A stretch of DNA of 64,000 nucleotides, from positions 1-64,000 of the IMG/VR virus record IMGVR_UViG_3300028043_000001; one strand, given 5' to 3'. Positions 4,579 through 61,730 of the stretch are shown here, in pieces. The position numbers were made by a program, and so were the translations under genes. Under the pieces are notes generated by a model. It saw only the letters and a program-made list of their open reading frames with translations. It did no database searches and was not told the origin of the DNA. The stretch is from a virus. Every line of letters starts with the position of its first letter. Position 1 is the stretch's first letter.

Positions 4579-5127
4579 ATGCACAAAGCACAGACTAATG
4601 ATGTGGTCAAGATCAACAATAAGTTCCTAGCTCGGGCGATTGCCGTTGCACTGGCTGAGGAGTTGGACCCTGAAGGGAAATATGGTCTTGTGGCCGCCCT
4701 TCCAAAAGCAATGATGGAGGGCAAAAAAGACGACTACGATCCTGTGAGTGAAAGGGTGGTAATTGAAAACCCAGAAAAAACTGTACCTGTTAGTGTGGCC
4801 ATCGCCTTAGTTGGACAGGCTGCAGTCAAGATTGCTGAGGAGATGGAAATTGAAGACCTCGAAGCCGCGATGACCTTACGTACGTCTGCGGCAGATCTCG
4901 CGAGGAGCAGTTTGACGTGTTTGCATTGGCGCGAGCTAGCAAATCATACTGGTTGGAGTAAAAGAGACGGCAAAGTTGTAGGGGTTGCCATCTCTCATGG
5001 ACGACAGGAGAAGCTCAAGTGGGATATCCAGCGGGCGGTTTTTTCTGCCTTGGGGGTAAAAACAATCAAAGATATCCCCAAGGCGTTGGACAAATTTGCA
5101 GATGTAATGGACAAGGAAGGAAGGTGA
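4579..5127 (+). CDS. hypothetical protein
   Basis: 182 aa ORF, SD aggag. Confidence 0.7.
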   Translation: MHKAQTNDVVKINNKFLARAIAVALAEELDPEGKYGLVAALPKAMMEGKKDDYDPVSERVVIENPEKTVPVSVAIALVGQAAVKIAEEMEIEDLEAAMTLRTSAADLARSSLTCLHWRELANHTGWSKRDGKVVGVAISHGRQEKLKWDIQRAVFSALGVKTIKDIPKALDKFADVMDKEGR

Positions 5128-5481: not shown

Positions 5482-6237
5482 TTGCAATCGGTTTTTGTAA
5501 AATGTAGGAGTGTGGAAGAGCGCGACCAGATGCTCGAATTTCTGGAAAGGAACTTTCATGGTTTCAGATTTGAGGGTAAACTGCTCCGAATAGAGGGCCC
5601 CACTAAGACGCCGAAGGGGCTCGGCCGCACCCGAAAGCCCTCGATAGGTTTTGACTATGTAGAAGATCTTGGTTATTACTGCGCTCGGGGCTTATGTTTA
5701 TGGATAATGAGAATGTTGGACCTTCGCGAGGTTCAGGATTACGACGGGCCAATCCCTCTCTCTTTATCTCATGCCTTCATTTATAGCCCCCCTTCGATGA
5801 CAAGAAGGAAAAGGTGGGGAGGGACTGGGTCTATGTTAGCTTCCCCGGACTATGTGAAGATCGTGGTAGGTGAGTTGGAAAGGTTAACAAATGCCTGGTT
5901 TCTGGAAAAAGGTTCTAAAGATTGCTTGCTCCCGGAGGACGAAGAAAAGGCAATTTTGAAAATTCCTGAGGTTAAGAAGATTTGCAACGGAGGCAACTAC
6001 GTAGCTATACAGTGTAAGATAGGTAGATTTGATCCCCCCTACTGGCTCTTGCTAAAGGTTCGAGGGCCGGGTTCGCGGTTTAGGATTTTTGGCCCTCGAG
6101 TACCGTTCAGCTCTTGGACGGGGTTTGTTTGCCTGGGAAATATGAATAGGGGGCTGTCTCACTATTTGCGAGAAGGGGATTTTGCTTTGGCTACTACTTT
6201 GCTGGTCAGTTTTATCAAGAAGGCTAGGAGGGAATAA
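5482..6237 (+). CDS. hypothetical protein, first gene of coupled run leading into Ubl operon
   Basis: 251 aa ORF, TTG start after gggagggg; TAATG overlap with next gene. Confidence 0.65.
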   Translation: MQSVFVKCRSVEERDQMLEFLERNFHGFRFEGKLLRIEGPTKTPKGLGRTRKPSIGFDYVEDLGYYCARGLCLWIMRMLDLREVQDYDGPIPLSLSHAFIYSPPSMTRRKRWGGTGSMLASPDYVKIVVGELERLTNAWFLEKGSKDCLLPEDEEKAILKIPEVKKICNGGNYVAIQCKIGRFDPPYWLLLKVRGPGSRFRIFGPRVPFSSWTGFVCLGNMNRGLSHYLREGDFALATTLLVSFIKKARRE

Positions 6238-6872
6238 TGTTTTTTGTGAAGGCTTCTTTGAAGGTTATAAAAGATAGAGGTGTTAAATTTAAAGGGGGAA
6301 GATTGGCATGTAAAAAATGTCATGATCCCATCTTGTTTGCGACCGCAAAAATGAGGCTTTTTGGTGCAAACGGCGATGGTACAGTTTTTGATTCTCACGG
6401 ATTTATTGACTTAGCCTACCTTTTTTGTTCAAAATGTGATGGTGGTGAAGTTTATTCGTGGTCAATATGGCCAGGTGGTATAGCTTACGAGAATGAAGTG
6501 GTATTAGTAGACGGAAATTTTGGGCGGCACATTCCTGAGGTAGACCCCGCAAAGGTTTTAATTGGTGACTTCATAGGGGAAAACTTGGAGGGGCTGAAGT
6601 GGCGTTGTCGTGACCTTCGAGAAGTTGAGGACTTCGATAGGGGTCTCAAGCTCTTTGTCACAAAATATAATACCCCCAAAGGTCGAGCCGAGCTAATGCG
6701 AATCGGTGAGGAGCAAGAGGAGCACCAGCGGGGTTTACGAATTTTGGCAGAATGGCAGCAACGTCGCGAGGAGATAGGAACTGCGCTAGAGACTCCTAAA
6801 AAAGGAAAAGTTACGGTTGTGGTGCAGGATGAATGTGGTTGTAAAAGGAAGATTCGTGAGGTGAAAATATGA
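6237..6872 (+). CDS. hypothetical zinc-ribbon protein coupled to E2-like gene
   Basis: CKKC..CSKC; ATGA overlap with 6869. Confidence 0.65.
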   Translation: MFFVKASLKVIKDRGVKFKGGRLACKKCHDPILFATAKMRLFGANGDGTVFDSHGFIDLAYLFCSKCDGGEVYSWSIWPGGIAYENEVVLVDGNFGRHIPEVDPAKVLIGDFIGENLEGLKWRCRDLREVEDFDRGLKLFVTKYNTPKGRAELMRIGEEQEEHQRGLRILAEWQQRREEIGTALETPKKGKVTVVVQDECGCKRKIREVKI

Positions 6873-8011
6873 AATTTCGTGTGCAAGGAAGGGGTGACTA
6901 CCTCGAGATGTGGGATGTGATGCTTCCCCTTTTGGAGGGATTCGCTGCGAAGATCGAAAAGCACATTAACGTTCTTAACTTTCACGGCTCAAAATCATCC
7001 CCCCTAGAGGTTAAGAAGGGTGAAATCAACCTCTATTTTTGGGCTTGTCCTCCAGGGGTGGAGGCCGATAGTGGAACTCTCGAGAGGGTTTTTGGCCTCA
7101 CTCTGACTGGCGGGATGAGGGATTCTTACATACCTCAATTTGTTCCGCAAGATTATATTCAGATTCTTGATGAGGATACACCGGTTGCTTTGATCAGTAA
7201 ATCGTCCCCGGAGGTTTATGTCCTCTTCGATCTCCCTCATAGAGCCCCAGAAGAATTAACCAGGGAGGTTTTGGGTGATCTCTTGAGGCTCCTCTTGCAA
7301 GAAGCATGTATCGCAAAAGCGGAGAACCCGGAGGATGAATCTCCCGAGTCGCGGTTTGTGCAAATTTGCAATGCTTGGCGCACAAACAGGAGGAAAGAAT
7401 CTGAGTCAAAAATCCGGCGGAGTGAGCGGAGAATCAGGGAAGTACTGGAGGAATTACAAGTACAGAGACGTCGATTGGAAGAAGAAAGATTGCTCCACGC
7501 TGGTTTACTAGAATCTCTAGAACAAAGGGAGGACGAGTTTAGAAAAATGTTTAAGGGAATTTTAGAAATTAAGGGGGTAGAATGGGTTGAGGTTACTGAG
7601 AAGGGCGTGAGTGTTTTTACTGATATGATCTACCTGGATTATGCTGGGCGCTCCTATAAAATTGGGAAATTCAAAATCACCTTTGGGGAAGAGAATCCGA
7701 CGCCTGACGTTATAAACCTTTTAAATGAGAAAATTACGGGGCAGAAGTACTTCCACCACCCACATATATTTGGGGACCGTGTCCCTAAAATTTGTGGAGG
7801 GAACTTGAGCCCCGGGATGGAAAAGCTAGTTATGGAGCAGGACTTTTTGAATGCAACGGCGGTTATGATAAGATTTCTCCGCACTTTCAACCAGAGTTCC
7901 CAATATGTAGGGTGGCTGAAGAGCAATTGGGCTCCCGAGCCATTCCCGGAAAAGGGGAAGGGGAAGGTAAAGGTAAAGGTAAAGGAGAAGGTAGAGGAGG
8001 AGGACTTATGA
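6869..8011 (+). CDS. prokaryotic E2 (UBC-fold)-like protein with N-terminal domain and central coiled coil
   Basis: C-terminal HHPHIFGDRVPKICGGN resembles the UBC HPN..IC active-site motif (Cys309); adjacent to JAB, E1 and Ubl. Confidence 0.7.
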   Translation: MKFRVQGRGDYLEMWDVMLPLLEGFAAKIEKHINVLNFHGSKSSPLEVKKGEINLYFWACPPGVEADSGTLERVFGLTLTGGMRDSYIPQFVPQDYIQILDEDTPVALISKSSPEVYVLFDLPHRAPEELTREVLGDLLRLLLQEACIAKAENPEDESPESRFVQICNAWRTNRRKESESKIRRSERRIREVLEELQVQRRRLEEERLLHAGLLESLEQREDEFRKMFKGILEIKGVEWVEVTEKGVSVFTDMIYLDYAGRSYKIGKFKITFGEENPTPDVINLLNEKITGQKYFHHPHIFGDRVPKICGGNLSPGMEKLVMEQDFLNATAVMIRFLRTFNQSSQYVGWLKSNWAPEPFPEKGKGKVKVKVKEKVEEEDL

Positions 8012-8592
8012 AGGCTACTGCACCACAAAGTCTGCGAGTTTTAATTCCTTTGGAGGTGAAGCATCGACTTGATCTGTACATTCAATGCAGTCCCCTTGAA
8101 ATTTCTGGGTTGGGGGAGGCAGTTTTAATTGAGGACAACGTTTTTTACATTAAAAACGTTTTTATCTTACCCCAAACAGTTTCAGCGGCGTCCACATACC
8201 TTGCTGTTCCTGCGGTAGGACAATTTTTGACCCAATTAATCCAGGAGGGGCGCGATCCCGAATTAATAAAGGTTTGGTGGCATTCACATGCTGACATGGG
8301 TTGCTTCTGGTCATCGATTGACGACTCCACAATTGAAAAATTCAAAAATGAATGGATGATTGCAATCGTGGGAAACCATCATGGGGAATATAAAGTTCGA
8401 GTTGATCTTTACTCACCGGTTCGAGTTGTCATAGACGACCTCCAATTGGAGGTCGTCGTAGATGACCCTGATGAGGAGATGAGAGCTGAGGTGGAAGCTG
8501 AAATCGCTGCGAAGGTAATTCAGGCCCCCCTTCCCCCTGCTGTGGGCTTTAATTGGAGAAAATCTAAGTGGACGGAGGGTACTTGGCTATGA
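8008..8592 (+). CDS. JAB/MPN+ metallo-isopeptidase (Ubl processing/deconjugating)
   Basis: EISGLG and WWHSHADMGCFWSSIDD give the E..HxH-x7-S-x2-D JAMM motif; ATG 8008 overlaps E2 stop. Confidence 0.9.
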   Translation: MKATAPQSLRVLIPLEVKHRLDLYIQCSPLEISGLGEAVLIEDNVFYIKNVFILPQTVSAASTYLAVPAVGQFLTQLIQEGRDPELIKVWWHSHADMGCFWSSIDDSTIEKFKNEWMIAIVGNHHGEYKVRVDLYSPVRVVIDDLQLEVVVDDPDEEMRAEVEAEIAAKVIQAPLPPAVGFNWRKSKWTEGTWL

Positions 8593-9242
8593 TGGATTTC
8601 ATGAGACAGTTAGGCATCTTAGCTCCCCCAGAACATTTAAATTTCCCTGTTTCTGTGGTCGGTTGTGGGGGTATTGGTTCTCCGACAGCTTTAGTGCTCG
8701 CCAAAATGGGGTGCACTGATATAACGGTCTACGATTTCGATCATGTAGAGGAGCACAACCTGCCCAACCAACTTCACAAACTGTGCCATGTTGACCGCCC
8801 AAAGGTGGTAGCGGTGGCCAATGTTGCTAAGGAGTTTGCTGGAGTAAAGGTTAAAACCAAAGAAGAGAGCGTTGGCGGTGAGCACCAGTTATCGGGAGTG
8901 GTTATTTCGGGTGTTGATACAATGGAGGCCCGCCGCGAGATTTGGAAAGCGGTAAAATATAACCCCCAAGTTCATCTGTATATTGATGGTCGCATGGGGG
9001 CTGAAGTTTGCAGAATTTACTCAGTGTGGCCAATTGATCCCGAAGATGTGCGTCGTTATGAGGCCTCGTTATATTCTGACGAGGAGGCTTTAGAGCTGCC
9101 GTGTACAGAGAGGGCAATTATTTACAACGTCTTTGTTGTTGCGGGTTTAATTGGTAACCAGGTTAAAAAGTATGCAAAGGCGGAGCCTTTCGCAAAAGAG
9201 GTGATTTTAGACCTCGTCTCGCTCACCCTAATTACCGTTTAA
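8589..9242 (+). CDS. ThiF/E1-like Ubl-activating adenylyltransferase
   Basis: VVGCGGIGS, YDFDHVEEHNLPNQ, SGVDTMEAR, IDGRMG, candidate catalytic Cys in ELPCTERA. Confidence 0.9.
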   Translation: MMDFMRQLGILAPPEHLNFPVSVVGCGGIGSPTALVLAKMGCTDITVYDFDHVEEHNLPNQLHKLCHVDRPKVVAVANVAKEFAGVKVKTKEESVGGEHQLSGVVISGVDTMEARREIWKAVKYNPQVHLYIDGRMGAEVCRIYSVWPIDPEDVRRYEASLYSDEEALELPCTERAIIYNVFVVAGLIGNQVKKYAKAEPFAKEVILDLVSLTLITV

Positions 9243-9258
9243 AAAAAGGAGGAGTGGC

Positions 9259-9465
9259 ATGAAAACTGTTAAGGTTGCAAAGTTGGGAGCACCGAAGAAG
9301 GATGTCATTCTCGAGGTGCGGGCTACGATTAGAGACGTTCTCAATGAAGCAGGGTTGGATCCGGGCGGATTTGAGGTTCTTCTCAACGGCAAGGAGTCTA
9401 AACTCACCAGCTTCGTTGAGCCTGGGGATATTGTTGTTTTGGTCCCTCAAATTCGGGGAGGGTAA
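9259..9465 (+). CDS. ubiquitin-like (beta-grasp, ThiS/MoaD-type) protein ending in Gly-Gly
   Basis: 68 aa; ATIRDVL..VLLNG..VEPGDIVVLVPQIRGG*; strong SD aggaggag. Confidence 0.9.
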   Translation: MKTVKVAKLGAPKKDVILEVRATIRDVLNEAGLDPGGFEVLLNGKESKLTSFVEPGDIVVLVPQIRGG

Positions 9466-9492: not shown

Positions 9493-9527
9493 ATAGGGGG
9501 CGTCGCCTCCAAAAGCGCGCCCCCTAT
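9493..9527 (+). terminator. GC-rich hairpin closing the Ubl operon (terminator or stability hairpin)
   Basis: atagggggcg / cgccccctat 10-bp stem; no clear U-tract. Confidence 0.4.
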
Positions 9528-9535: not shown

Positions 9536-9814
9536 ATGAGAGATTACAGTAAACCTCATATCATAGAAGAAGGCTTCGCCTTCTGTTTCTCCTGCAATAC
9601 TTATACCTTTAATCGTCATATACAGAAGGTAGGAGTTCGACGTTATCTTGATATGGAAATCATTGTACCTGAAATGGTGTACGTCTGTATGGAATGTCTT
9701 GAAGAAGTTTCTTGGTATAAAAGAGGAGATTATGATGACATGCTAGCTCTGTACCAGATCCACGCGGAGCTCCTAAAAAGGAAAAATAGATTCAGTGGCC
9801 CCGTCAATGAATAG
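9536..9814 (+). CDS. small zinc-ribbon protein
   Basis: CFSC..CMEC. Confidence 0.55.
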   Translation: MRDYSKPHIIEEGFAFCFSCNTYTFNRHIQKVGVRRYLDMEIIVPEMVYVCMECLEEVSWYKRGDYDDMLALYQIHAELLKRKNRFSGPVNE

Positions 9815-9822
9815 ACTTCCGT

Positions 9823-9890
9823 GTCTTGAAACTCTCTTAAGACTTTTCTTTTTAAGTAATAGGTTTAAGTCTTAAGAGTTTTTACAAGAC
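9823..9890. repeat. intergenic inverted repeat
   Basis: ctcttaagactt (9834-9845) / aagtcttaagag (9867-9878), outer gtcttg/caagac. Confidence 0.7.
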
Positions 9891-10065
9891 TAATTGACAG
9901 CAAAACAGCGGAAAAAAACTGACCACCCCATAAACTGGGAGTTGATGAAAAAATGTTGCCGTTAAAATTTTTGGTGACCACGCTTTGCCTATTTCTTTCA
10001 GCAGCATTTTTAACCGCGGCCCCCGTCTTTCTAGACTTATTTGGGGATGAGGTTGCTTATATGCA

Positions 10066-10314
10066 ATGTCTAGGTTTAAGTTTACTCCTTGCAGTAGTAG
10101 GTATATACGTTTGGGGGGTACTCTAATGGGCGATTTACCCGACGATGTTTTAGCGGCGTTGTTGCGCTTAGAGGCCAAACAAGTTCTCCGGGGATTTAAG
10201 TCAGGACTCTTCCCCGATATGACCCTCAAAGAGGCTCAAGCAATTCGACAATTACCCTTAGAGGTGTTAACGGAAGAATTAAAGAGGACAAAACGCAATG
10301 AAGTCCCTCAATGA
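10066..10314 (+). CDS. hypothetical protein
   Basis: 82 aa ORF after gaggt. Confidence 0.55.
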   Translation: MSRFKFTPCSSRYIRLGGTLMGDLPDDVLAALLRLEAKQVLRGFKSGLFPDMTLKEAQAIRQLPLEVLTEELKRTKRNEVPQ

Positions 10315-10633
10315 GTGGAAAGAGCACCTTCAGGCCGAGGGGCTAATGCAACCCGGACAAGAGGGTTTTTTAGAGGTTTATGATTGCCCCTTTTGTGGTC
10401 AGGAGAACGGTTTTTGGTATGATGGCCCTCTCTTTGTTTGTGGGGCACAATGCGAACATTGCGACAAGGGGTTTTCTGGAATTATTAGTATTGAGGAAAC
10501 CTGCTCAAAATGCAATGACCGAATCGACTGCTTAACGCGGCAGCTAACTAGACCTCTAGTAGTTGCAAAAATTTTTGAGGTTCCTGATAAATATGACGTG
10601 ATACCCGGGGGGTTTTACGTTGAAGGACCGTAA
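10298..10633 (+). CDS. small Cys-rich zinc-finger protein (CxxCxxRxDC family)
   Basis: CPFC..CEHC..CSKCNDRIDC. Confidence 0.7.
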   Translation: MKSLNEWKEHLQAEGLMQPGQEGFLEVYDCPFCGQENGFWYDGPLFVCGAQCEHCDKGFSGIISIEETCSKCNDRIDCLTRQLTRPLVVAKIFEVPDKYDVIPGGFYVEGP

Positions 10634-10859
10634 AGTAAAATGTCCTTTTTGTGGGCAGCAGCTGCGTCTCACTGAGGAGTGGCGGCGGTCGTTTGGCTTG
10701 GATAAGCCTTGTTACTTTATGTCATGTCCTTGTCAATTAAATGCCTCACTCGAAGAGAAGTCATCTAAGGTTTTTATTGCGGTTTTTGATCGCGTTGAGT
10801 GTCTTATCTGCCAGCGTTCGCAACGATGTGAAGGAGTGCCGCGAAGACATGTGGATTGA
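10620..10859 (+). CDS. small Cys-rich protein (degenerate family member)
   Basis: CPFC..CPC..CLICQRSQRC. Confidence 0.55.
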   Translation: MKDRKVKCPFCGQQLRLTEEWRRSFGLDKPCYFMSCPCQLNASLEEKSSKVFIAVFDRVECLICQRSQRCEGVPRRHVD

Positions 10860-24211: not shown

Positions 24212-24859
24212 ATGAAGCTTGTTGAGGAGTTCTGTTCAATTCAAGGGGAGTCGTCGTATGTGGGTAGACCCTGTTATTTTGTTCGAGCTCACGGATGTAA
24301 TTTAGATTGTCAGTGGCCATGTGATACCTTGTATGCGAGAGATGAGAAAACTTTTTACGATTCTCCCATCGAACAGATAGTGAAAAGATGCCGCCAGAAT
24401 CTAGTGCCATTAGTACAACTTACTGGTGGTGAGCCCCTATTACAAATTGATGAGGCGGCAGACTTGTGCCGCAAATTGGCAGATTTCAAAACGGTTTTGG
24501 TGGAGACTAATGGCACCATCTCTATAAAGCCCTTCAAAAATGCACCTAAAAACGTTGTTTTAGTTGTTGATTGCAAAACACCCTCGTCCGGAATGCACAT
24601 TTATTTGGAAAAATTTGTTGTAAACATTCCTCATCTTCGGAAGGTTGATCAAGTTAAGTTCGTAGTTGGTAACAGGGATGATTTTGATTTTGCAAGAGGC
24701 ATAGTCGAAAAATTTAGTCTCAGCGACAAGGTCAGCGAAGTCCTTATCTCACCAGTTTTTGGCATGATAGAACCCACTAGGCTTGCTGAATGGTTGCTTA
24801 GTGAACTTCCCGCGGCAAGATTTCAAATCCAACTTCATAAACTGTTAAACGTGCGTTAG
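24212..24859 (+). CDS. queE: 7-carboxy-7-deazaguanine synthase (radical SAM)
   Basis: EEFCSIQGESSYVGRPCYFVRAHGCNLDCQWPCDT, LTGGEPLLQ, ETNG, KFVV, QIQLHK. Confidence 0.92.
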   Translation: MKLVEEFCSIQGESSYVGRPCYFVRAHGCNLDCQWPCDTLYARDEKTFYDSPIEQIVKRCRQNLVPLVQLTGGEPLLQIDEAADLCRKLADFKTVLVETNGTISIKPFKNAPKNVVLVVDCKTPSSGMHIYLEKFVVNIPHLRKVDQVKFVVGNRDDFDFARGIVEKFSLSDKVSEVLISPVFGMIEPTRLAEWLLSELPAARFQIQLHKLLNVR

Positions 24860-40535: not shown

Positions 40536-41255
40536 ATGCTCACAAAAATTGCTTTAGAAACTCCCCTTTCTTGTCCTGACTTGGGGTTTAGGTATGGTGA
40601 CTATTTGTTCGTTTTGGGTCATCTTTGGTCAAACCCAGTCTACCGAGAAGCTGTGCTTTATTGGCAGCGGACTGGAAAGCCAGTTTACCTTGATAACTCA
40701 GCGTTTGAGCTTTCGACCTCAATCTCAAACACCGATTATTTCCAAGTCATTGGGGAGCTACGCCCAGACATAATTGTCGTTCCCGACGCAGTGGGTCAGT
40801 TTAAGGAGACTGTGAGGTTAGCCCGCTCCTTTTTTACTGAAATTTCAGGATCTGCTTTTATGCGGCACCGTTTTATGATAGTCCCCCAAGGCAAAGATAA
40901 CCGAGAAAGGATGAAGTGCTATCACGCATTAAAAGGAATGGGGTTTCCTTTTCACATGATTGGGTTACCTAGACATGCTTACCCTTACAGGGTGGAGCTT
41001 CTCTACAATCTAATGAAGTTTACTAATAAGTCCAACATGCTTTTCCACTTCCTGGGAGTTCCCGACCCTAAGGAGCTGAATGGTATTTCTCCACTGTTGC
41101 ATTCTTTAGATACGTCGTGGGTGGCAAAAGATGCGATTGGTAAAGGGGGCTTTGATTCCCTTAACTTTGAGGCTGATGAGGTTGAGGAGAGTGCTTTCTT
41201 GTCGTCGCTAGAGAAGCTGGTTAATGCCTTGCAAGAAGGAGATGAAGGTGAGTGA
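40536..41255 (+). CDS. TGT-fold transglycosylase, DpdA-like (7-deazaguanine insertion into DNA)
   Basis: VYLDNSAFE, VPD, IVPQG, HFLG, SLDTS; queE/queD/folE2 in same genome; sits between primase and polymerase. Confidence 0.65.
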   Translation: MLTKIALETPLSCPDLGFRYGDYLFVLGHLWSNPVYREAVLYWQRTGKPVYLDNSAFELSTSISNTDYFQVIGELRPDIIVVPDAVGQFKETVRLARSFFTEISGSAFMRHRFMIVPQGKDNRERMKCYHALKGMGFPFHMIGLPRHAYPYRVELLYNLMKFTNKSNMLFHFLGVPDPKELNGISPLLHSLDTSWVAKDAIGKGGFDSLNFEADEVEESAFLSSLEKLVNALQEGDEGE

Positions 41256-43653
41256 CGCTGATACTTTAATCGCGAAGCTTTTAACTCATTGTGCTCCTAA
41301 CTCTATCGTACCCGCCCAGATTCCCACTTCAGAGTTTTCGGGAATTGCTTTCGTAGGGATAGCTCCTGCCAGCCAAGAAATCTTGGAGGGCAAGCCTTTT
41401 GTCGGACCTTCAGGGAAGGTTTTTGATGCTTGTCTAAACGCGGTTGGCATTGACCGCTCAAGATGTTGGGTAGGAAATTTATGTCCCGTACGCCTCTCCC
41501 AAGATAGAGGCCTCTCGCGCTACGAGGTGCAGGTTTTACGAGAGCCCCTAATTGCAGCTCTGAAGAAACTGCAACCGCGCCTAATTGTAACTTTAGGTGC
41601 AGAACCAACACGCGCGTTCTTCATTGAGAGAGACGTGGAAATAATGCTTCTGCGTTCACACATTTTTGAGTCAGAAGATCTTCCTGGTACCTCTATCATG
41701 CCCACAATCCATCCTGCCTACGCCCTGCGCCAAAATCTTGCTTTGGGGGCTTACTTACTAAACGACTTTCTAATTGCAAAGAAGTTTTTAGAGGGTGTAC
41801 CTCGATACAAACCTTGGACTTACGAAGAAATTACCACTATTGCCCAGCTTCAAGAAGTCTTCTGGACCTTTAAAGATCAACTTACAGCCCTCGATTCTGA
41901 AGCCACTAGCGTTAACCCGTTTAAGGCCTCTCCTTTTATGGTGAGTTTTGCCTTCGAGAGTGATCCCAATCATAGTTATGTTATTCATACACCTCACGAA
42001 AATTACGTCCCGCAACTAGGTGCTCCGGAGCTTCTTGATGGTAGGAGTAGTGCAACGCCAATTGAAAAAGTGTTGCCCATCTTAAAGGCACACAATCCCC
42101 GTACAGTAGTCCAGAACATGCTCTACGACTTTGTCCTCCTTTCTAGGTTTGGTTATTCTCCTAACGTTTACGCAGATTCTATGTACGCTTTTTCCTTACT
42201 CGATGAAAACTGCCCTAGAGGCCTCGAGACTTTAGGTAGTTTTTTTGGGGGAATTGCTCCATACTCTATTGATTATAACTCCTGTGACTTAACGATGTGG
42301 AAGCCCTACGCAGCCTGCGATGCCGTAAATGCTTTGAGAGTGTGGCAGTCTTTCGAGCCCCGTTTTATAGAGCCTCATATGAAGTGGCTGTTGTGGGACT
42401 ACATGCTTCCCCTACTCCACGAGTTAGCCCGAATGGCAATTCGAGGTTTGCATATTGACACAACGAAGCTTGCAGAGGTGGGCGCGAAGGTACAAGACGA
42501 TATACGAAAAAAGGTTTCAATGATGCACATGATTGCGGGGTATGAGTTTAATCACCGCTCAGGCGATCAGTTAACACCTGTCTTTGAAAAACTACGTATT
42601 CCCATCCTTGGCAAATCGCGGAAAACAAAGAAACCCTCTTTTCGTAAGGAGTTACTTGAGAGACTTAAAGACCGTTACCCTTTTGTGGAGCTGTTACTAG
42701 AAACCAAGAAGATGGAAAAAATGTATTCGTCTTACATTAAAAATGTCCACCAGTTTCTTGATGATGAGAACTGTGTACACCCCAACTTTGATATCAAGAA
42801 AACAGGACGCCTATCTGCTTCAGAACCCGCAGTACAAACATTGCCGAGAAATTCGGTTATTTTGGAACTATACAGCGCTCGACCCGGCCACGTATTTATA
42901 AAATGTGACTACAGTGCCGCCGAGTTACGTTGGCTAGGCTTTTTGGCGGGTGAGGAAAGGTGGCTTAATCCAGCGGCTGATCTTCATGTTTCTAATGCTT
43001 CCTTCTTTTATCAAGTAGAGCCTGGACAGGTTACTCCAACAATGCGCACGGAGGTTAAGTTTTTGGGGTTTGGTAAGGTCTATGGTTCTAGCGTGGAGAC
43101 TCTTGCGAAGCAGCTGAACTGCAGCATCGCACAAGCCCAGCAACTCGAGGACAAGTTTTTCAAAACCTTCCCCAAAATTAAGGCGTATATGGAGCGGTGC
43201 AAAAAGATCGCTCTAACAGAAGGATGTTTAACCAATTACTTTGGGCTCAGCCGCCGATTCTCATATGACATTATTTTTGGAGGACCTAGTGATGAGGAGA
43301 GGATCGTTAGAGAAGCCTATAATTTTGGACCCCAATCGACTGTTGCGATGTGGACAAACCTTACTCTGGTCAAAATTCAGCAATGGTTTCGCCACCACTT
43401 ACCCGGTTCCCACATAGTTTTACAGATTCACGATGCCATAGTTGCCGAAGTGCCCGTAGAGGAGATCTATGTTGCAATGAAGGCCATGTGGACTATAATG
43501 AGGCGCACAATCGATGTCAAGTCGAAGTTCTTTTTGCCCGTCGATGTTTCTATCGGACCTAACCTTCTACGTCAAGTCAAAGTCATTCCGTTTTATGAGG
43601 AGGATTTCGATGTCGCCTACTCCCAAACTTCTAAAAGTGCTAGAGCAGTTTAA
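41248..43653 (+). CDS. family A DNA polymerase with N-terminal UDG family-4-like domain and 3'-5' exonuclease
   Basis: VGIAPASQE..PFVGPSG..HPAYALR; Exo LDSEAT, YD, YAACDA; KTGRLS, CDYSAAELR, KFLGFGKVYG, QIHDAIV. Confidence 0.92.
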   Translation: MSDADTLIAKLLTHCAPNSIVPAQIPTSEFSGIAFVGIAPASQEILEGKPFVGPSGKVFDACLNAVGIDRSRCWVGNLCPVRLSQDRGLSRYEVQVLREPLIAALKKLQPRLIVTLGAEPTRAFFIERDVEIMLLRSHIFESEDLPGTSIMPTIHPAYALRQNLALGAYLLNDFLIAKKFLEGVPRYKPWTYEEITTIAQLQEVFWTFKDQLTALDSEATSVNPFKASPFMVSFAFESDPNHSYVIHTPHENYVPQLGAPELLDGRSSATPIEKVLPILKAHNPRTVVQNMLYDFVLLSRFGYSPNVYADSMYAFSLLDENCPRGLETLGSFFGGIAPYSIDYNSCDLTMWKPYAACDAVNALRVWQSFEPRFIEPHMKWLLWDYMLPLLHELARMAIRGLHIDTTKLAEVGAKVQDDIRKKVSMMHMIAGYEFNHRSGDQLTPVFEKLRIPILGKSRKTKKPSFRKELLERLKDRYPFVELLLETKKMEKMYSSYIKNVHQFLDDENCVHPNFDIKKTGRLSASEPAVQTLPRNSVILELYSARPGHVFIKCDYSAAELRWLGFLAGEERWLNPAADLHVSNASFFYQVEPGQVTPTMRTEVKFLGFGKVYGSSVETLAKQLNCSIAQAQQLEDKFFKTFPKIKAYMERCKKIALTEGCLTNYFGLSRRFSYDIIFGGPSDEERIVREAYNFGPQSTVAMWTNLTLVKIQQWFRHHLPGSHIVLQIHDAIVAEVPVEEIYVAMKAMWTIMRRTIDVKSKFFLPVDVSIGPNLLRQVKVIPFYEEDFDVAYSQTSKSARAV

Positions 43654-47487: not shown

Positions 47488-48028
47488 CTTTGGTGACCGC
47501 ATCCTAACTTGGGAAAGGGTTGCAGGTAAGACAATTCTTGAGGTGGGCTCACTAGATATAAACGGTAGTTTACGAGAGTTTTGTTTGCAGCGAGGCTGCA
47601 AGTCCTATCTAGGAGTTGATTTAGAAGAGGGTCCAGGAGTTGATAAGATCGTAGATGCTATTACCTTAGTTGATGAGTTTGGCTTTTGTGCGTTCGATAT
47701 TGTGATTGCTACTGAGCTCATCGAGCACACTCAAAATTGGCAAGCCGTGATTAATAACATTAAAAACGTTTGTAAAGAGGGCGGTTTTATTCTAGTTACA
47801 ACCCGCTCTCCTGGATTTCCACTACACCACCCCCCAGACTGTTGGCGGTTTACCGCTGATGAGTTCTTCAACATTTTCTCAGATTTGGACATTAAAATAC
47901 TCGCGCAAGATGAGCAAGTTCCTGGCGTGTTTATTTTTGCGGAAAAGCCTAACAACTTTCTTAATACAGATCTCAGCAATATCCATCCTTTAAAAGTCGA
48001 GGACCAGGAGGAACAAAATGAACCTTAG
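47465..48028 (+). CDS. class I SAM-dependent methyltransferase
   Basis: ILEVGSLDINGS..GVDLEEGPGVD..FDIVIATELIEH..DCWRF. Confidence 0.85.
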   Translation: MCHQSVRDFGDRILTWERVAGKTILEVGSLDINGSLREFCLQRGCKSYLGVDLEEGPGVDKIVDAITLVDEFGFCAFDIVIATELIEHTQNWQAVINNIKNVCKEGGFILVTTRSPGFPLHHPPDCWRFTADEFFNIFSDLDIKILAQDEQVPGVFIFAEKPNNFLNTDLSNIHPLKVEDQEEQNEP

Positions 48029-48860
48029 TGGCCTGCGAGTTTCTAAAAAGGACGACAGGGATTTCTCTCCGGAGACTCCTGAAGTTGAGTCAATTTTGTG
48101 GAGCAAGGTTGCTCCGCTTGCACTCGAGAAGTCTGCCAGCCTCGAGGAATGGTTTTCACCTCTAGAGGACCAAGAACAACTTGGTGCGTGCACGGCACAT
48201 GCTGTCGTGGCACTGTTTGAGTACTACGATCGCCGCGCTTTTAATAATCAGTACAGCGATCTTTCCCGCCTATTCCTTTACAAAGTCACTCGTAATCTAT
48301 TAGGCCTGACCGGCGACTCCGGCGCTGATCTACGTTCTGCGATGCGCGCTACACATCGGATCGGAATCTGCCCAGAGAAATATTATCCATACAACATTGA
48401 AAAGTTTGACTGGGAACCTGATTCTTTTCACTACGCGCTCGCTAGGAATCATCGCGCTACCCACTACGTTCGCCTCGACAAAGATCAGAACGTGGAGGCA
48501 ACCCTAACAAGGGTGAAAGCCTTCATTCGTGCAGGGCTACCAAGCTGTTTCGGTTTTTTGTGTTATGAATCTCTGGATGATGTTGGCTCAAGTGGCAATG
48601 TGCCTTTCCCCGGTGAGAGTGAACAAATTGTTGGAGGCCACGCAATCGTCGCTGCAGGATACGACGACGAGAGAGTAATTACTCACCCATCGACTGGTGA
48701 TCAAACTGTTGGCGCGATAAAGTTCCCCAACTCGTGGGGTACTGAATGGGGTAGCGAAGGTTGGGGTTGGTTACCCTACTCCTACATTTTAAAGAATCGT
48801 GCCTTCGATTTTTGGGTTCTCCTGAGAACCGACGCAGTGAGGTTTTTAGAATGGGATTAG
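48018..48860 (+). CDS. papain-like C1 cysteine peptidase
   Basis: DQEQLGACTAHA, GGHAIVAAGYDD, NSWGTEWG. Confidence 0.9.
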   Translation: MNLSGLRVSKKDDRDFSPETPEVESILWSKVAPLALEKSASLEEWFSPLEDQEQLGACTAHAVVALFEYYDRRAFNNQYSDLSRLFLYKVTRNLLGLTGDSGADLRSAMRATHRIGICPEKYYPYNIEKFDWEPDSFHYALARNHRATHYVRLDKDQNVEATLTRVKAFIRAGLPSCFGFLCYESLDDVGSSGNVPFPGESEQIVGGHAIVAAGYDDERVITHPSTGDQTVGAIKFPNSWGTEWGSEGWGWLPYSYILKNRAFDFWVLLRTDAVRFLEWD

Positions 48861-49508: not shown

Positions 49509-50207
49509 ATGAAAAAAGTTTTACTTGCTACACTACTCATCTGCTTTTTAGCCGCACCAGTGAGTGCCGGCGTTTGGATTGGGGGTCATTTTGGTCCGAA
49601 CTGGACGGGGGATTCGGATGTTAACTTTAAAGCACCCCCCTTAAAGGGGACTTTGAATGGTGTCACCACTAATGCTGGCTATCTTGCGGGGTTGATAGTT
49701 GGCTATGACTTCGATCAACGCCACGGATTTCCTGCATGGACTGAGTACTTTGGAGTTGCCCTTGATTTCTCGTACAACCCCTTCAATCAATCTGCCCAGA
49801 TTGTTGGAGGTACGTTTATTCCGCCCTTCATTAATGCTGCACAATTACCACAGATCGAAGGGTACCAGGTAGCCCTGTCATTTTTGTTGAAGGGGCAATA
49901 CCCGTGTTTAAAGAGCGCTGCATTTCCCAAGGGCAGACTTTTCCCTTATCTTATGGTTGGTCCGGCTGTTGTGTGGACTACCTCTTTTGCTAACACGATT
50001 GCTTCACAGTCGTCCACCAATGTTGGAATCGTGACTGAGGTAGGGCTGCAGTACTTCATTGTTCCTAATCTCGCTGCAAGTGCTGGGTTTCGTTACCGCC
50101 ATGTTTGGGGGCCAACTTTTGATTTCAGGCGCGACATTAATTATGTTCACGCCAACACATCTACTGACCAATACACCGTGCTCCTGAGGCTGTCGTACCA
50201 CTTTTAA
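49509..50207 (+). CDS. outer-membrane beta-barrel protein
   Basis: signal peptide; alternating amphipathic strands (GLIVGYDF, PYLMVGP, VGLQYF); C-terminal LSYHF. Confidence 0.8.
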   Translation: MKKVLLATLLICFLAAPVSAGVWIGGHFGPNWTGDSDVNFKAPPLKGTLNGVTTNAGYLAGLIVGYDFDQRHGFPAWTEYFGVALDFSYNPFNQSAQIVGGTFIPPFINAAQLPQIEGYQVALSFLLKGQYPCLKSAAFPKGRLFPYLMVGPAVVWTTSFANTIASQSSTNVGIVTEVGLQYFIVPNLAASAGFRYRHVWGPTFDFRRDINYVHANTSTDQYTVLLRLSYHF

Positions 50208-51221: not shown

Positions 51222-52930
51222 TAATTTTTCGGCGTGTTGCGGCCCGCAATTTTCGCTCCTTCGAAACTTTTGATCTGCCTCTCGACGCCTTCGGAATGGT
51301 TTTAGTACAGGGAATCATTGAGGGAGGGTCGGCGTTGGAGTCAAATGGTGCTGGCAAGTCTTCCCTTTTTGCAGCAATTTCTTGGGCCTTGTTTGGTAAA
51401 TTTTTTCATGTAGGCGGGGCATTAGTTTCAGGTGAACAGGTTATAAAAAGGGGTAGCAGCGGTGGTTGCTGCGTTACCCTCGAGCTTTTTAAAGGAGACG
51501 ATCAGGTTGTTATCAATCGTTTTCGCGGTGACAAGCAGTATGGTAACAAAATCGTCGTTAGCGTAAACGGGGTTGATCGCACGCCCTCCTCTAATTTTAA
51601 AACTCAAGAGCTGATTGAAGAGGTGCTGGGTATTACGTTTGAATTATTTGCAAACCTCGTTTATATTAATGAAACATCGATGCGCAGCTCTTTCGTTTTA
51701 GAGGCCGACACTCAAAGGAAAAAGCTATTAGTAAGTGCGCTGCCCCACTTGGAACAGTTTGGTGAAGCCCGCGAGGAGGTTAAACGCAATCTCGATTTCT
51801 ATCACAAACACAAAGCTGAACACAAGAGCCAGATTAACGCACTGCTCGAAGCTTCGCGAGAGTTGCAAAACAGTACTCCCCCAAGTCCCGATTCAATTTA
51901 CATCCAACTTCACTCTTTGAAGGAGCGGTTTACAGATTTAAGTGATCGTTTCGTCCTTGCTAACTCAATTGTGCTCAAACTACCTTCACAGGAGCAATGT
52001 GAGTCACAACTCCGAGCCAAGATTAGGGAGGTAGCTACTGCTGAGGCAGCCATTAAGTTTCATGAAAAAGAGGTTAGTAATTGGAAAGCTTTGCACAACG
52101 CGTGCTATGTTTGTTCACAACCCATTTCGCCCGACTTCAAAGAAACTCAAATTCAAGTCCTTGGGCGTACTATTACGGAGTTGCTCGATGAACTTGGTCA
52201 ACTTCAAAGGGAAGAGGAACAGCTTCGCAGTTTTTGTGGACAACACCAGAGCCTCCTGAAGATAAAAGAGAGTAAAGAAGGACTCATGCAATCTATTACG
52301 CAGTTGCAACAGGTAGCTGCCGAGATAGAGCAAACCCAGTTGAAACTAGCTCGGCAAAAACAATCCCTAGAAAGAAGGATTGAAAACTTGCAAGAAGTTT
52401 CACGGATCGTTGATTCGTATAGTCAGACCTTTCAGGTCTGGCTCGACGGTTTTGGTCCTCGGGGTGTGATGTCGTTTGCTCTTGAACACGTCGTTGCAAT
52501 TCTAACCAAGAAGTCGGAAGAGTGGTTAAAGAAGTTGTGGGCTGAGGGAGCTGCTGCGACGTTTGGTTTAGCAGGCGATGACTCTTCAAAAATTGAAGCA
52601 AAGTTGTTTTTAAATCAACACGAGGTTAACCTCCTCTCCCTAAGTTCTGGAGAAACCCGTAGAGTGTGTCTTGCGATTTGTTTTAGTCTTCGAGAGACTT
52701 TACAAGCTTTAACGGGGTGGAGTTCAAATTTGCTGATATTAGACGAAATTAATGCTGGTTTAGATCCTTCTGGAAGTGAGCAAGTTATAAAACACTTAAA
52801 ATCGGCGTATGGGACCAACTCTAGCATTTTTGTGATTTCCCACCTCCCAACTCCCAGCCGCCTTTTTGACGAGCATTTACTCGTGCATTACCGGGGAAAT
52901 TCTTCAACGCTTGAGTGGCACACAAAGTAA
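51218..52930 (+). CDS. SbcC/Rad50-like ATPase
   Basis: NFRSF, SNGAGKSS, hook CYVC, LSSGE, LILDE, VISH. Confidence 0.9.
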   Translation: MIIFRRVAARNFRSFETFDLPLDAFGMVLVQGIIEGGSALESNGAGKSSLFAAISWALFGKFFHVGGALVSGEQVIKRGSSGGCCVTLELFKGDDQVVINRFRGDKQYGNKIVVSVNGVDRTPSSNFKTQELIEEVLGITFELFANLVYINETSMRSSFVLEADTQRKKLLVSALPHLEQFGEAREEVKRNLDFYHKHKAEHKSQINALLEASRELQNSTPPSPDSIYIQLHSLKERFTDLSDRFVLANSIVLKLPSQEQCESQLRAKIREVATAEAAIKFHEKEVSNWKALHNACYVCSQPISPDFKETQIQVLGRTITELLDELGQLQREEEQLRSFCGQHQSLLKIKESKEGLMQSITQLQQVAAEIEQTQLKLARQKQSLERRIENLQEVSRIVDSYSQTFQVWLDGFGPRGVMSFALEHVVAILTKKSEEWLKKLWAEGAAATFGLAGDDSSKIEAKLFLNQHEVNLLSLSSGETRRVCLAICFSLRETLQALTGWSSNLLILDEINAGLDPSGSEQVIKHLKSAYGTNSSIFVISHLPTPSRLFDEHLLVHYRGNSSTLEWHTK

Positions 52931-52959
52931 GAGGGAATTTCAACTTGAGGAGCAGATAT

Positions 52960-54291
52960 ATGGACAGAAGGAATTTTACTTTGCAGATCTTGATCGGTAG
53001 TTTAATTTCTTCCCCGGAATTTCTGGTCCGCAGAGAAGAGAACTACCTTTATGTGGAAGACATTTTACAGCCCCACATAGAGTATCAAATGTGGAAAGTA
53101 CGCCATTGGAAGCAGTACGGCGAAATTACCAATGACGCTATGTGGGATGCAGGTATTATTGCCTTCGTTATTCCAGAAGCCGTTGCTGAGTTTATCGATT
53201 GTGAACGAATTTCGACAGGACAGACTGGGCATCTACTTTCCCTCCTCAACGATCTTGGACTAGCAGTTTGGTTTATGGAAACAAGTTCGTGGCAGGATGA
53301 TCAACTTGAACTTCCCTTACCTATTGACTGGTTTCAGTTTGCTCAATCCGCGGAGCGCCTCTTCAACCCCTTCGATGTTGTGTTACCCTCCAAGCCTGAA
53401 ATTTATGTTACCTTCGACGACGACAGTGCTATGAAGTTAAAAGAGGCCATCTTTCCGTTCGTTGTGCCATCTAAAAGAACCAAGTTTGGGAAGTATCTCT
53501 TAGAACTGCACGACATCTCAAAGTCAGTTTCGAAAACCCAAATGCAAATTCAAAAGGTTGGCATCCGCCAAGTTCCTATACCATTAACTATTCATCTCAG
53601 ATCTGAGCCCTTCCAAACCATTGCAACCGCGTCGGTGTATACTAATCTGCAGCCCGAGGTGATGGGCTCCCACCTCAGCCGCCTTGTTGAAGTTTTAAAC
53701 TCGGTTTCCTCTCAACCTTTAGCCACCGACTTGCAAACTATGCAGTCTTTATTGAGCGTCCTTCAAGAGCGCTTAAAAGCAACGAACGCTTACCTCAAAC
53801 TTAGGTTCCCAATCTTGATTGCACAAGAAGCACCTGTCTCGAAAATTAAAGGAATGGTGCACTACGACTGCACTCTCTCCGGCGAGATAGTTGATGGGGA
53901 CTTGAAAGTTTTAAAGACGATACGAGTGCCCTACGTTTCTTCTTGTATTTGCTCAAAAACGATCAGCTTATTTAACGCTCACAATCAGAGGAGTTTTGCT
54001 GATGTAACCCTGATGTTGAGAGAGTGCGACTATGCTTTTGAGGATATCATCGAGATCGTAGAGGGCTGCTGCTCGGCACCGATTCGGGCGCTCCTGAAAA
54101 GAGAGGATGAAAAATTCATCACCGAGGCTTGTTTTGATTATGCTGGCTTTGTTGAGTCCATCTGTCGCCAGATTGCAGATAACGTTGCTGCTCTAGATGT
54201 GAGGGGCTGGCTGGTTGTTTGTGAACATCTGGAGAGTATCCACCAACACAACGCGGTTGCGTTGATTCGAGGTGGTGAGTATATCCCCTAA
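52960..54291 (+). CDS. folE2: GTP cyclohydrolase IB (FolE2) fused to N-terminal degenerate LAGLIDADG domain
   Basis: IQKVGI, GSHLSRL, CICSK..AHNQRS, LLKREDEK, ESIHQHNA; N-terminus QILIGSL..EYQMWK..LGLAVWFM..PFVVPSKRTK. Confidence 0.85.
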   Translation: MDRRNFTLQILIGSLISSPEFLVRREENYLYVEDILQPHIEYQMWKVRHWKQYGEITNDAMWDAGIIAFVIPEAVAEFIDCERISTGQTGHLLSLLNDLGLAVWFMETSSWQDDQLELPLPIDWFQFAQSAERLFNPFDVVLPSKPEIYVTFDDDSAMKLKEAIFPFVVPSKRTKFGKYLLELHDISKSVSKTQMQIQKVGIRQVPIPLTIHLRSEPFQTIATASVYTNLQPEVMGSHLSRLVEVLNSVSSQPLATDLQTMQSLLSVLQERLKATNAYLKLRFPILIAQEAPVSKIKGMVHYDCTLSGEIVDGDLKVLKTIRVPYVSSCICSKTISLFNAHNQRSFADVTLMLRECDYAFEDIIEIVEGCCSAPIRALLKREDEKFITEACFDYAGFVESICRQIADNVAALDVRGWLVVCEHLESIHQHNAVALIRGGEYIP

Positions 54292-56875: not shown

Positions 56876-57544
56876 TTGGAAGAATTTGGCATCGTTGTAC
56901 TCACCTTTAACCGCCTTGAGCGTCTACAGTCGTGTTTAGACCACATCTTCTCACGCACAAAAGCCTCCTTTAAACTTTACGTAGTCGATAATTACTCAAC
57001 TGATGGCACACAAGAGTATCTCGAGGGTTTCAGTGCCAACCAAAAGCTCGTCTATATTAGGATGGATTCGAATGTTGGGGTCTTAGCTCGAAACGTAGCG
57101 TTTCGTCAAATTACTGCACCCTTTATTGCCCAGATCGATGATGACGTTACTGTTGACCCTGATTGGGACTCAAAATGCTTGCAGTTAATGAACAGCGATT
57201 CCCAAATCGGTTTGATTTGTCATCAAGGAGCCCGTATCAAGGAGTGGCCCCATTTTGAGGTCCAGCATGAAGATTGCTTTGTTGATTGCGCTACCGGGTT
57301 TTTTATGTGCTTCAGAAACGTTGGCCTGTTGTTTGATGAGAACATTGAAAGATTTTGGTGTGAGGATCTAGACTTATCACTACAATTTAAAGAAAAGGGT
57401 TACCGCATTTTTTGCACACCAACGTTGTGTAGCCATGCAAGTGCCCGTGATATCCCTATCGACCTGGATCTTTATAATAGGAACCATGATTACGTTTTTA
57501 AAAAGTGGGCTTCAAGATTAGCAAGCCTGGGGCTCGAGGCTTAG
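56876..57544 (+). CDS. GT2 glycosyltransferase
   Basis: VVLTFNR, VDNYSTDGT, IDDD, EDLD. Confidence 0.9.
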   Translation: MEEFGIVVLTFNRLERLQSCLDHIFSRTKASFKLYVVDNYSTDGTQEYLEGFSANQKLVYIRMDSNVGVLARNVAFRQITAPFIAQIDDDVTVDPDWDSKCLQLMNSDSQIGLICHQGARIKEWPHFEVQHEDCFVDCATGFFMCFRNVGLLFDENIERFWCEDLDLSLQFKEKGYRIFCTPTLCSHASARDIPIDLDLYNRNHDYVFKKWASRLASLGLEA

Positions 57545-61719: not shown

Positions 61720-61730
61720 GTAGAAGTTTA

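Follow-up and report, generated by a model that had tools for sequence, protein, structure and literature searches.

A predicted ubiquitin-like protein conjugation operon was identified in the genome of a tailed phage represented by the IMG/VR virus record IMGVR_UViG_3300028043_000001. The DNA analyzed, referred to as the window, comprises positions 1 to 64,000 and thus the first 64 kb of this 116,436-base record, which is about 75% complete by estimate. The operon encodes an E2-like protein, a JAMM peptidase (JAB), a ThiF-type E1, and a small ubiquitin-like modifier (Ubl), and is, as deduced from its sequence, real, conserved, phage-borne, and a member of an undescribed family. That its predicted products constitute a working Ubl-conjugation system of this large phage is the interpretation preferred here, to which a probability of roughly 70% is assigned. 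It is favored because the genes are coupled, the E1 scores above the ThiF cut-off, the JAMM and E1 key residues are invariant, the C-terminal domain of the E2-like protein is predicted to adopt a UBC fold and carries an HPH...CxG motif, the Ubls feature GG tails, and the gene order is kept in related loci.

Organization of the operon and its phage context

An earlier note, made from the sequence alone, had described four adjacent genes spanning positions 6869 to 9465. The corresponding open reading frames (ORFs) are indeed found in the ORF list (6869-8011, 8008-8592, 8589-9242, and 9259-9465), and the ATGA stop/start overlaps proposed in that note are legible in the sequence at 8008-8011 and 8589-8592. 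The extent given for the operon was too short: two additional coupled genes are located upstream (5482-6237 and 6237-6872), placing its start at position 5482. The following features were annotated:

5482..6237 (+): degenerate E2-like protein, 251 aa; the C-terminal ~95 residues are UBC-like; first operon gene
6237..6872 (+): CxxC...CxxC protein, 211 aa; second operon gene
6869..8011 (+): E2-like protein, 380 aa; predicted C-terminal UBC fold, HPH...C309
8008..8592 (+): JAMM/MPN+ metallopeptidase (JAB), 194 aa; E31, H92-S-H94, S102, D105
8589..9242 (+): minimal ThiF-type E1, 217 aa; single adenylation domain, GxGxxG at residues 25-30, C172
9259..9465 (+): ubiquitin-like modifier (Ubl), 68 aa; C-terminus QIRGG
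9493..9527 (+): GC-rich hairpin just 3' of the Ubl stop codon; -29.6 kcal/mol, z -4.5, none of 200 shuffles folding equally well

A third ATGA overlap (6869-6872) joins the second gene to the E2-like gene, and a one-base overlap at position 6237 places the stop codon of the first gene on the ATG of the next, while AGGAGG precedes the ATG of the Ubl gene at 9259. Most simply, the transcription unit would therefore consist of six genes (5482-9465), bordered on its 5' side by a gap of 354 bases. The hairpin following the Ubl gene has no U tail and was not called by the terminator scan; it may mark the end of the operon or stabilize the RNA. Sites reported by the consensus promoter and terminator scans were no more numerous than expected by chance.

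The contig could have been a cellular defence island, as the earlier note had cautioned, and this was not the case. Beyond the window, the record encodes the terminase large subunit (TerL), a portal protein, a head protease, a major head protein, a head-tail adaptor, and UvsX, whereas PolA, DnaB, a primase, SbcCD, a sigma factor, and genes of the deazaguanine pathway lie within the window, nearly all genes of which are located on one strand. The distance from the operon to the virion genes further downstream is ~60 kb. Among the sequencing runs listed for this sequence, three are of DNA and none is of RNA. The reported lack of thiamine and molybdopterin genes in its vicinity was likewise borne out, the MoaE, ThiG, and Rhodanese models yielding no match in all 116,436 bases; these models matched in 11 to 14 of 14 control genomes, and in a record that is ~75% complete the result does not prove absence. 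A single sub-threshold match to ATP_bind_3 (PP-loop) corresponds to a QueC-like gene.

The E2-like protein

The protein encoded at 6869-8011 is a diverged member of its class. Its full-length structure model, built with 84 family members, reached a mean predicted local distance difference test value (pLDDT) of 89.5 and consists of an N-terminal alpha/beta domain (residues 1-150), a helix/coiled coil of 75 residues (159-233), and a C-terminal domain with a UBC fold (237-355). The presence of this fold, on which the earlier proposal of an E2 depended, was corroborated by the model of the C-terminal domain alone (pLDDT 91), the structural neighbours of which are almost solely UBC, UEV, and RWD proteins. 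Nearly all of the top 50 Foldseek matches are E2s (best E-value 0.075, template modelling (TM) scores 0.36-0.44), and all listed rows of the Foldseek-independent VIA wide search belong to the UBC, UEV, or RWD groups (Z 4.1-6.2). In a second look by VIA-align, Ubc13 was superimposed with Z 5.9 (root-mean-square deviation 3.1 Å, 100 aligned residues), and a bacterial CdnG-associated E2 scored between 5.4 and 5.8. At the profile level, the only matches of the E2 family in the PDB outside coiled coils were obtained for UBE2L3 (E ~0.065), the matching stretch reaching up to UBE2L3 residue 87. Despite these moderate scores, the UBC fold was accepted, because the neighbour lists hold almost nothing else, and on the basis of this model the protein was accepted as a diverged E2.

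The candidate catalytic cysteine is conserved, as had been anticipated: P298 is found in all of the 84 aligned family members, at least 90% of which retain each of H297, H299, and C309. The pattern HPH...CxG was found in 135 out of 151 retrieved family proteins, with the third residue always being His and never Asn. Judging from the sequences, HPH...C309 is a putative variant of the E2 motif composed of His-Pro-Asn and a cysteine about ten residues further on.

The family to which this protein belongs is large. An exhaustive HMMER search returned 675 sequence clusters at E ≤ 1e-3, of which 161 passed the stricter threshold of E ≤ 1e-10, and most alignments covered the full length; a word-indexed homologue search had yielded only three relatives. 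By tblastn, no match was detected among 50,697 phage records, and matches in the ESM Atlas were restricted to clusters of hypothetical proteins labelled as viral or Methylomirabilota. Neither a phmmer search of the PDB with the C-terminal domain alone (nothing meaningful) nor a search of PDB and BFVD with the full-length model (no match at E ≤ 1e-3) added information. The full-length search lists were dominated by coiled coils and, for residues 1-150, by GATase-like domains (Z ~7); a relationship with GATases is not claimed. The N-terminal domain (window positions 6869-7318) exhibits a flavodoxin/GATase-like topology at this Z value and conserves N37, H39, D101, D121, and H124 family-wide (motifs NPHG and FDLPH).

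JAB peptidase and E1

The assignment of the gene at 8008-8592 to the JAMM peptidases is supported by E31, H92, H94, S102, and D105, which are invariant in all 13 sequences compared. In a phmmer search of the PDB, Rpn11/PSMD14 was the best match (E 3.8e-9), well ahead of CSN5 (0.05), whereas tblastn at 1e-3 did not reveal a match among the 50,697 phage records. From its sequence, the enzyme is predicted to function as Ubl C-terminal hydrolase and isopeptidase.

The gene at 8589-9242 was confirmed as ThiF/E1 by its match to Pfam ThiF (PF00899; E 4.3e-20, 72.3 bits versus a cut-off of 28.1). The nearest proteins of solved structure are UBA5, ThiF, MccB, and MoeB, all at ~1e-5, and the best PHROG match was phrog_15670 (2.4e-24). 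The candidate cysteine within PCTER, which the earlier note had pointed out, is C172; it is invariant in 15 out of 15 aligned E1s, as are the loop residues G25, G27, and G30 together with D49, D51, K72, D110, and R115. We take C172 to occupy the position of the reactive cysteine of ThiF and MoeB. PADLOC models termed 'E1-E2' matched the enzyme with E-values down to 5.1e-10 over residues 6-117 or less, i.e., over the Rossmann/nucleotide-binding part only, and the NCBIfam model 6A-MBL cap2_3 also matched over the Rossmann part. The NCBIfam equivalogs for ThiF and MoeB were missed widely (30-57 bits versus cut-offs of 152-647).

The Ubl and the precursor tails of its relatives

The gene at 9259-9465 encodes, as proposed, a 68-aa Ubl ending in QIRGG, and the GG is invariant in all nine aligned Ubls. 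End-to-end but weak alignments were obtained with MoaD (E 0.011, ending in SGG) and SAMP2 (E 0.037), both ending in GG, along with sub-threshold Pfam matches to SAMP2 (1e-3) and ThiS (0.012). The beta-grasp fold is deduced solely from these weak alignments and the sub-threshold Pfam and NCBIfam matches. Homologues were located 3' of the E1 gene in all five complete viral loci and in four loci from metagenome-assembled genomes (MAGs).

Only two out of the nine aligned Ubls, namely that of the window and that of related locus L007, stop at GG. The remaining seven carry one or two residues past it (R, A, A, F, H, L, or TE). Furthermore, a related phage contig (L005:8941-9345, +) encodes two head-to-tail Ubl units, each ending in AIKGG, with one extra terminal residue, which appears to be the layout of a polyubiquitin gene. 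The tails and the tandem arrangement indicate that the Ubl is required with its GG end free and that something cuts after it, and therefore that JAB would also act as maturase in this family. It had been suggested that JAB would be a deconjugase rather than a maturase, as the Ubl of the window already ends in GG; this holds for the window itself, but not for the family, in which tailed precursors prevail and one di-Ubl occurs. The tails and the di-Ubl would fit a JAMM peptidase serving as both maturase and deconjugase and argue for conjugation over a mere sulfur carrier. This argument is qualified by JAB-processed ThiS/MoaD fusions, which are known (PMC1779556).

The two upstream genes

Residues 153-248 of the protein encoded at 5482-6237 could be aligned to the C-terminal domain of the E2-like protein (hhalign with the E2 family profile: probability 93%, E 3.5e-7). 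This protein retains the cysteine in a CLGN context and lacks HPH; Pfam, PADLOC, PHROG, and NCBIfam did not assign it to a family, and phmmer returned weak matches to E2-like paralogues in four related loci (L004, L006, L009, and L020). Additional E2-like paralogues are also encoded in loci L004, L009, and L016, while in L020 a short E2-like gene is the sole one seen. The protein encoded at 5482-6237 may represent a variant E2 or an adaptor. For the protein encoded at 6237-6872, a zinc-ribbon-like pattern (CxxC...CxxC) was recognized by eye, whereas searches in Pfam, PADLOC, PHROGs, and NCBIfam did not reveal a family and no relative was found among the 13 related loci.

Relatives in phages and bacteria of the Candidate Phyla Radiation

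To evaluate the distribution of the operon, related loci were collected by a scan seeded with an eight-row alignment of E2-like proteins via one motif (...FD[LM]PH), the result representing a biased sample and not a census; the same scan seeded with the single E2-like protein of the window found none. In total, six viral contigs, two of them of ~190 kb, and, considering one genome per species, eight MAG contigs were recovered. The MAG contigs were labelled as Saccharibacteria (two), Collierbacteria (three), Paceibacterota (one), unclassified bacterium (one), and, for a contig of 3.6 kb, Gammaproteobacteria (one). All five untruncated viral loci retain the order E2-JAB-E1-Ubl, and seven out of eight MAG loci retain E2-JAB-E1, six of these seven being CPR or unclassified; the eighth is cut off after the E2 gene. 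An E2-like gene with the near-invariant cysteine is present in 13 out of 13 related loci, and JAB and E1 in the 12 that are not cut off.

The neighbours of the MAG operons that could be named by Pfam (L013, L014, L015, L017, L018, and L019) are housekeeping or metabolic chromosomal genes, encoding L25, a release factor, S2, TopA, a penicillin-binding protein, Nramp, Tmk, ThyX, TrmD, and a PilB-like ATPase. Outside the operon, conserved neighbours were not detected among the 13 loci at E ≤ 1e-3. One Saccharibacteria MAG contains an AAA ATPase gene (L019:5561-7033, -; PF00004, 1.2e-33) that immediately precedes the E2 gene in divergent orientation. For each of the three enzymes, the closest copy was found in a Saccharibacteria MAG, where genes for a ribosomal protein and a release factor flank the locus.

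In the E1 tree, the family forms one clade (support 100/99) apart from the E1s of the cultured phages crAss001 and FpV4. Within this clade, viral rows and rows of the Candidate Phyla Radiation (CPR) interleave (two to three label changes, with an unresolved backbone), and the row nearest to the window is a Saccharibacteria copy with 57% identity; the system is therefore common to CPR bacteria and large phages. The claim that the phage itself carries the machinery for attaching and removing the Ubl stands as far as the operon lies in a phage record, whereas the family is not restricted to phages, as the copies in CPR MAGs show.

Full-text searches, which covered neither subscription journals nor preprint supplements such as the Bil operon tables, did not return a description of a phage-borne or CPR operon of the type E1-E2-JAB-Ubl. 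Likewise, no such operon is described in the accessible parts of the Bil papers, of the 2006 paper by Iyer et al., and of a jumbo-phage overview from 2021.

Proposed mechanism and alternative explanations

As judged from the families involved, the minimal E1, presumably acting as a homodimer, would adenylate Gly68 of the Ubl and take the modifier onto Cys172. The E2-like protein would then receive the Ubl on its Cys309 by transthiolation and transfer it to a lysine of the target. The N-terminal domain and the coiled coil of the E2-like protein may choose the target in place of an E3, and this manner of target choice, already proposed in the earlier note, is plausible; the degenerate E2-like and zinc-ribbon proteins perhaps help. 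The Rpn11-like JAMM peptidase would cut after GG, thereby removing the modifier from targets and, in most relatives, first maturing the precursor. Most likely, the phage took the system from CPR hosts, because viral and CPR E1 rows interleave and the nearest row originates from Saccharibacteria. During infection, the system would most likely serve to re-mark host or phage proteins, with regulation, unfolding or degradation, or the exclusion of rival phages as possible outcomes. The roles envisaged in the earlier note, i.e., tagging of host proteins, competition with host Ubl defence, and stripping of Ubl from virion proteins, are guesses.

Several observations weigh against a conjugation system. 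The E2-like protein is not recognized by any E2 model of Pfam, PADLOC, or NCBIfam, and PHROGs also returned nothing: none of the curated models (UQ_con, Prok-E2_A-E) matched, Pfam at E ≤ 1 gave only a coiled-coil artefact, and the 84 family members searched at E ≤ 0.01 did not match an E2 model either. The E2 assignment is based on moderate structural scores (Z < 8, Foldseek E ≥ 0.075, and the TM scores given above), and its motif is HPH instead of the canonical HPN. The conserved polar residues of the N-terminal domain (N37, H39, D101, D121, and H124) are more reminiscent of an active site or a metal site than of a surface for binding. JAB and Ubl stay under every curated Pfam and NCBIfam cut-off (for JAB, Prok-JAB 17 bits versus 25 and JAB 14.1 bits versus 22.5). 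The E1 lacks a distinct catalytic-cysteine domain as well as a UFD domain; some minimal E1s of this type activate sulfur carriers only, and the archaeal SAMPs serve in both capacities. Finally, a CPR bacterium as the host of the phage is no more than a reasonable guess.

One possible refinement of the conjugation reading is that tagged host or phage proteins are unfolded, or fed to a protease, by a Clp-type AAA+ ATPase of the phage, which would be a viral counterpart, in the bacterial world, of degradation directed by ubiquitin. The window begins with the C-terminal part of such an ATPase (2-640, +; ClpB/ClpC-like, AAA_2 2.1e-43, ClpB_D2-small 3.5e-29), which is cut by the start of the record and lies ~4.8 kb upstream of the Ubl operon on the same strand. 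This arrangement, the AAA ATPase gene upstream of the E2 gene in the CPR locus L019, and the proteasome lid protein Rpn11 as the best solved relative of JAB are in line with a coupling of tagging and unfolding. However, the Clp gene is truncated by the contig end and is separated from the operon by at least five ORFs, one of which is on the opposite strand, and in none of the 13 related loci did the 6-8 kb around the operon contain a Clp/AAA relative of the fragment (E ≤ 1e-3). A ClpP or proteasome gene was not seen, and none was searched for. This refinement is regarded as unlikely. A more far-reaching version would be that CPR phages and their hosts share a ubiquitin system nearer to eukaryotic logic than any described bacterial one, comprising a separate UBC protein with HP(x)-Cys, a second E2 variant that looks inactive, a peptidase of the Rpn11 kind, and tags that are encoded as polyubiquitin-like repeats or carry a blocking residue after GG, and that the phage, equipped with its own Clp unfoldase, marks host proteins for unfolding or destruction. 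Such a scenario is unlikely; if true, no bacterial virus before this phage would have been known to 'ubiquitinate' its host.

Alternatively, the operon could represent a Bil-like defence carried by the phage for superinfection exclusion, tagging a structural protein of competitor phages and spoiling their assembly. Bil, which features the same four activities, conjugates its Ubl to a central tail fibre of a phage, as stated in the respective preprint (10.1101/2023.09.04.556158). The E1 matches to the PADLOC 'E1-E2' models and the interleaving of viral and cellular E1 rows, as often observed for mobile defence genes, are compatible with this possibility. On the other hand, the PADLOC matches of the E1 cover the nucleotide-binding part only, and E2, JAB, and Ubl are without a match; defence genes were not seen beside the operon in the window by the Pfam and PADLOC scans, and the operons in MAGs are surrounded by housekeeping or metabolic genes, such as those for ribosomal proteins, release factor, TopA, penicillin-binding protein, and TrmD, and not by defence genes. 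This explanation is regarded as quite improbable.

Very improbable indeed is a role in sulfur transfer or non-protein acyl transfer, in which the Ubl would serve as thiocarboxylate or acyl-adenylate for a modified nucleotide or cofactor, with the 'E2' as a scaffold: the ThiF/MoeB-type minimal E1, the best Ubl matches to MoaD, SAMP2, and ThiS, the QueE-, QueC-, and FolE2-like enzymes and several glycosyltransferases of the phage, and the position of the distantly related crAss001 and FpV4 E1 modules beside UDG and replication genes would suit it, but it is opposed by the lack of MoaE, ThiG, and rhodanese matches in 116 kb with QueC as the only PP-loop match, by the constant company of the E2-like gene and JAB in related loci, by the wide margin to all NCBIfam ThiF/MoeB equivalog cut-offs, and by precursor tails and a tandem di-Ubl, which are unexpected of a pure carrier.

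Other genes of the record

Directly after the operon, small Cys-rich (CxxC) ORFs follow (9536-10859, +), the first of which showed a sub-threshold match to a RING-type zinc finger over residues 5-20 only (E 0.006); no other family was found for these ORFs. A weak F-box-like match of a 182-aa ORF upstream of the operon (4579-5127, +; E 0.0012, 19 bits versus a cut-off of 24.3) probably arose by chance. Genes for QueE-, FolE2-, and QueC-like proteins, several glycosyltransferases, a radical-SAM enzyme, and a methyltransferase (window 24212-24859, 52915-54291, and 56876-63257; record 65748-66467) likely represent a set for DNA modification by 7-deazaguanine and/or sugars. The family A DNA polymerase (41224-43653, +) features an N-terminal UDG-superfamily domain (6.5e-18, residues 39-172). 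Moreover, a papain-family cysteine peptidase (48018-48860, +; 2.8e-9) and an outer-membrane beta-barrel protein (49509-50207, +; 2.7e-10) are encoded, the latter of which would be unexpected in a phage of CPR bacteria.

Implications

Bacterial ubiquitin-like conjugation has so far been known, from Bil and from Cap2/Cap3 of the cyclic oligonucleotide-based anti-phage signalling system (CBASS), as a weapon of the host against phages. Here, a complete and conserved kit, predicted to write and erase such marks, sits in a phage. The underlying gene family comprises at least 675 sequence clusters, is shared with CPR bacteria, and includes an E2-like member that is unnamed in the domain libraries. 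If the conjugation reading is true, the operon would provide a tractable model of the benefit that protein tagging brings to a bacterial virus, a new E2 architecture (N-terminal domain, coiled coil, and UBC domain) that may replace an E3, and polyubiquitin-like precursor genes outside eukaryotes.

Comparison with known systems

By their models, the system of the window fits neither Bil, Cap2/Cap3, PRTRC, nor the sulfur systems of ThiS and MoaD. Bil types I and II (classes 6d and 6c of Iyer et al. 2006) resemble it in combining Ubl, E2, a JAB deubiquitinase, and E1 in one operon. In Bil type II, as many as nine residues, which need to be removed, extend beyond a conserved Gly of the Ubl (10.1101/2023.09.26.559546), and these tails parallel the GG tails with one or two extra residues in the relatives of the window Ubl. 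According to the same source, the Bil E1 comprises an inactive and an active adenylation domain in one chain, whereas the E1 of the window is a single domain of 217 aa. Class 6d E2s are described as lacking the classical His before the Cys (PMC1779556), while the family studied here features HPH at this site; its E2 moreover has an additional N-terminal domain and coiled coil compared to the Bil E2. PADLOC did not report a match for E2, JAB, or Ubl of the window, and neither a BilABCD operon as modelled there nor a two-domain E1 was found. Bil represents host defence, whereas the window copy is located in a phage and the cellular copies among housekeeping genes.

Similarity to type II CBASS Cap2/Cap3 (classes 6a and 6b) is given by the E1, E2, and JAB chemistry and by the E1 matches to the PADLOC 'E1-E2' and NCBIfam cap2_3 models. 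Cap2 is an E2-E1 fusion that conjugates a CD-NTase (PMC10097602), without a free Ubl. In contrast, E1 and E2 of the window are separate genes accompanied by a free Ubl gene, and neither Pfam nor PHROG named a CD-NTase or any other nucleotidyltransferase among the larger ORFs of the window.

With the ubiquitin systems of eukaryotes and archaea (UBC E2s, Rpn11, and Caldiarchaeum-type operons), the system shares the UBC fold, His-Pro-x about ten residues before the Cys, and an Rpn11-like JAMM peptidase. Polyubiquitin genes are made as repeats or with an extra C-terminal residue, and the tags of the relatives likewise occur as head-to-tail repeats or with such a residue. The window differs in having HPH and not HPN, a MoaD/SAMP-like Ubl sequence, a minimal E1, and no RING E3, and the likeness is one at fold level. 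Sampylation, the archaeal counterpart, is not known to need an E2, whereas an E2-like gene is present in every one of the 13 loci related to the window, and the NCBIfam UbaA model scored only 34 bits versus 450 on its E1. Apart from this, the archaeal SAMP/UbaA/HvJAMM1 system is similar in its small MoaD-like GG modifier, minimal E1, and JAMM deconjugase (PMC4443979). Concerning the PRTRC cassette (TIGR03734-03742), the PRTRC_ThiF model reached 39.9 bits on the window E1 versus a cut-off of 144.75, and the PRTRC_A, B, and C models did not match its JAB, E2, or Ubl at E ≤ 0.1. A ThiS/MoaD pathway would call for MoaE, ThiG, or rhodanese, none of which was matched in the 116-kb record, and for an E1 scoring at equivalog level, which this one does not.

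Among phages, TAPI (Ubl) and TAPK (JAB) of Lambda and T1 are comparable in that a phage Ubl with a C-terminal Gly is combined with a JAB predicted to release it (PMC1779556). These proteins come without E1 or E2 and are encoded in the tail gene cluster, in contrast to the operon described here, which lies far upstream of the virion genes. The cultured phages crAss001 (Gp76-79) and Flavobacterium phage FpV4 (gp50-53) encode homologous E1s (E 4.5e-14 and 5.8e-24, respectively) with the same Cys. As read from their sequences, a protein with the JAB motif is encoded ahead of the E1, and another protein has a Ubl-like N-terminus that ends in ...SGG or ...SGA before a long extension; both modules (L003, Gp75-Gp79, and L002, gp49-gp53) adjoin UDG and replication genes. 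The proteins placed in the 'E2 slot' of these modules (crAss001 Gp78 and FpV4 gp52, 420-444 aa) were considered as members of the window E2 family and rejected (hhalign probability <1%). In GenBank, the E1s of both phages are labelled 'thiamine biosynthesis protein', and for these crAss-like and Flavobacterium phage genes the designation as thiamine biosynthesis protein ThiF is probably misleading.

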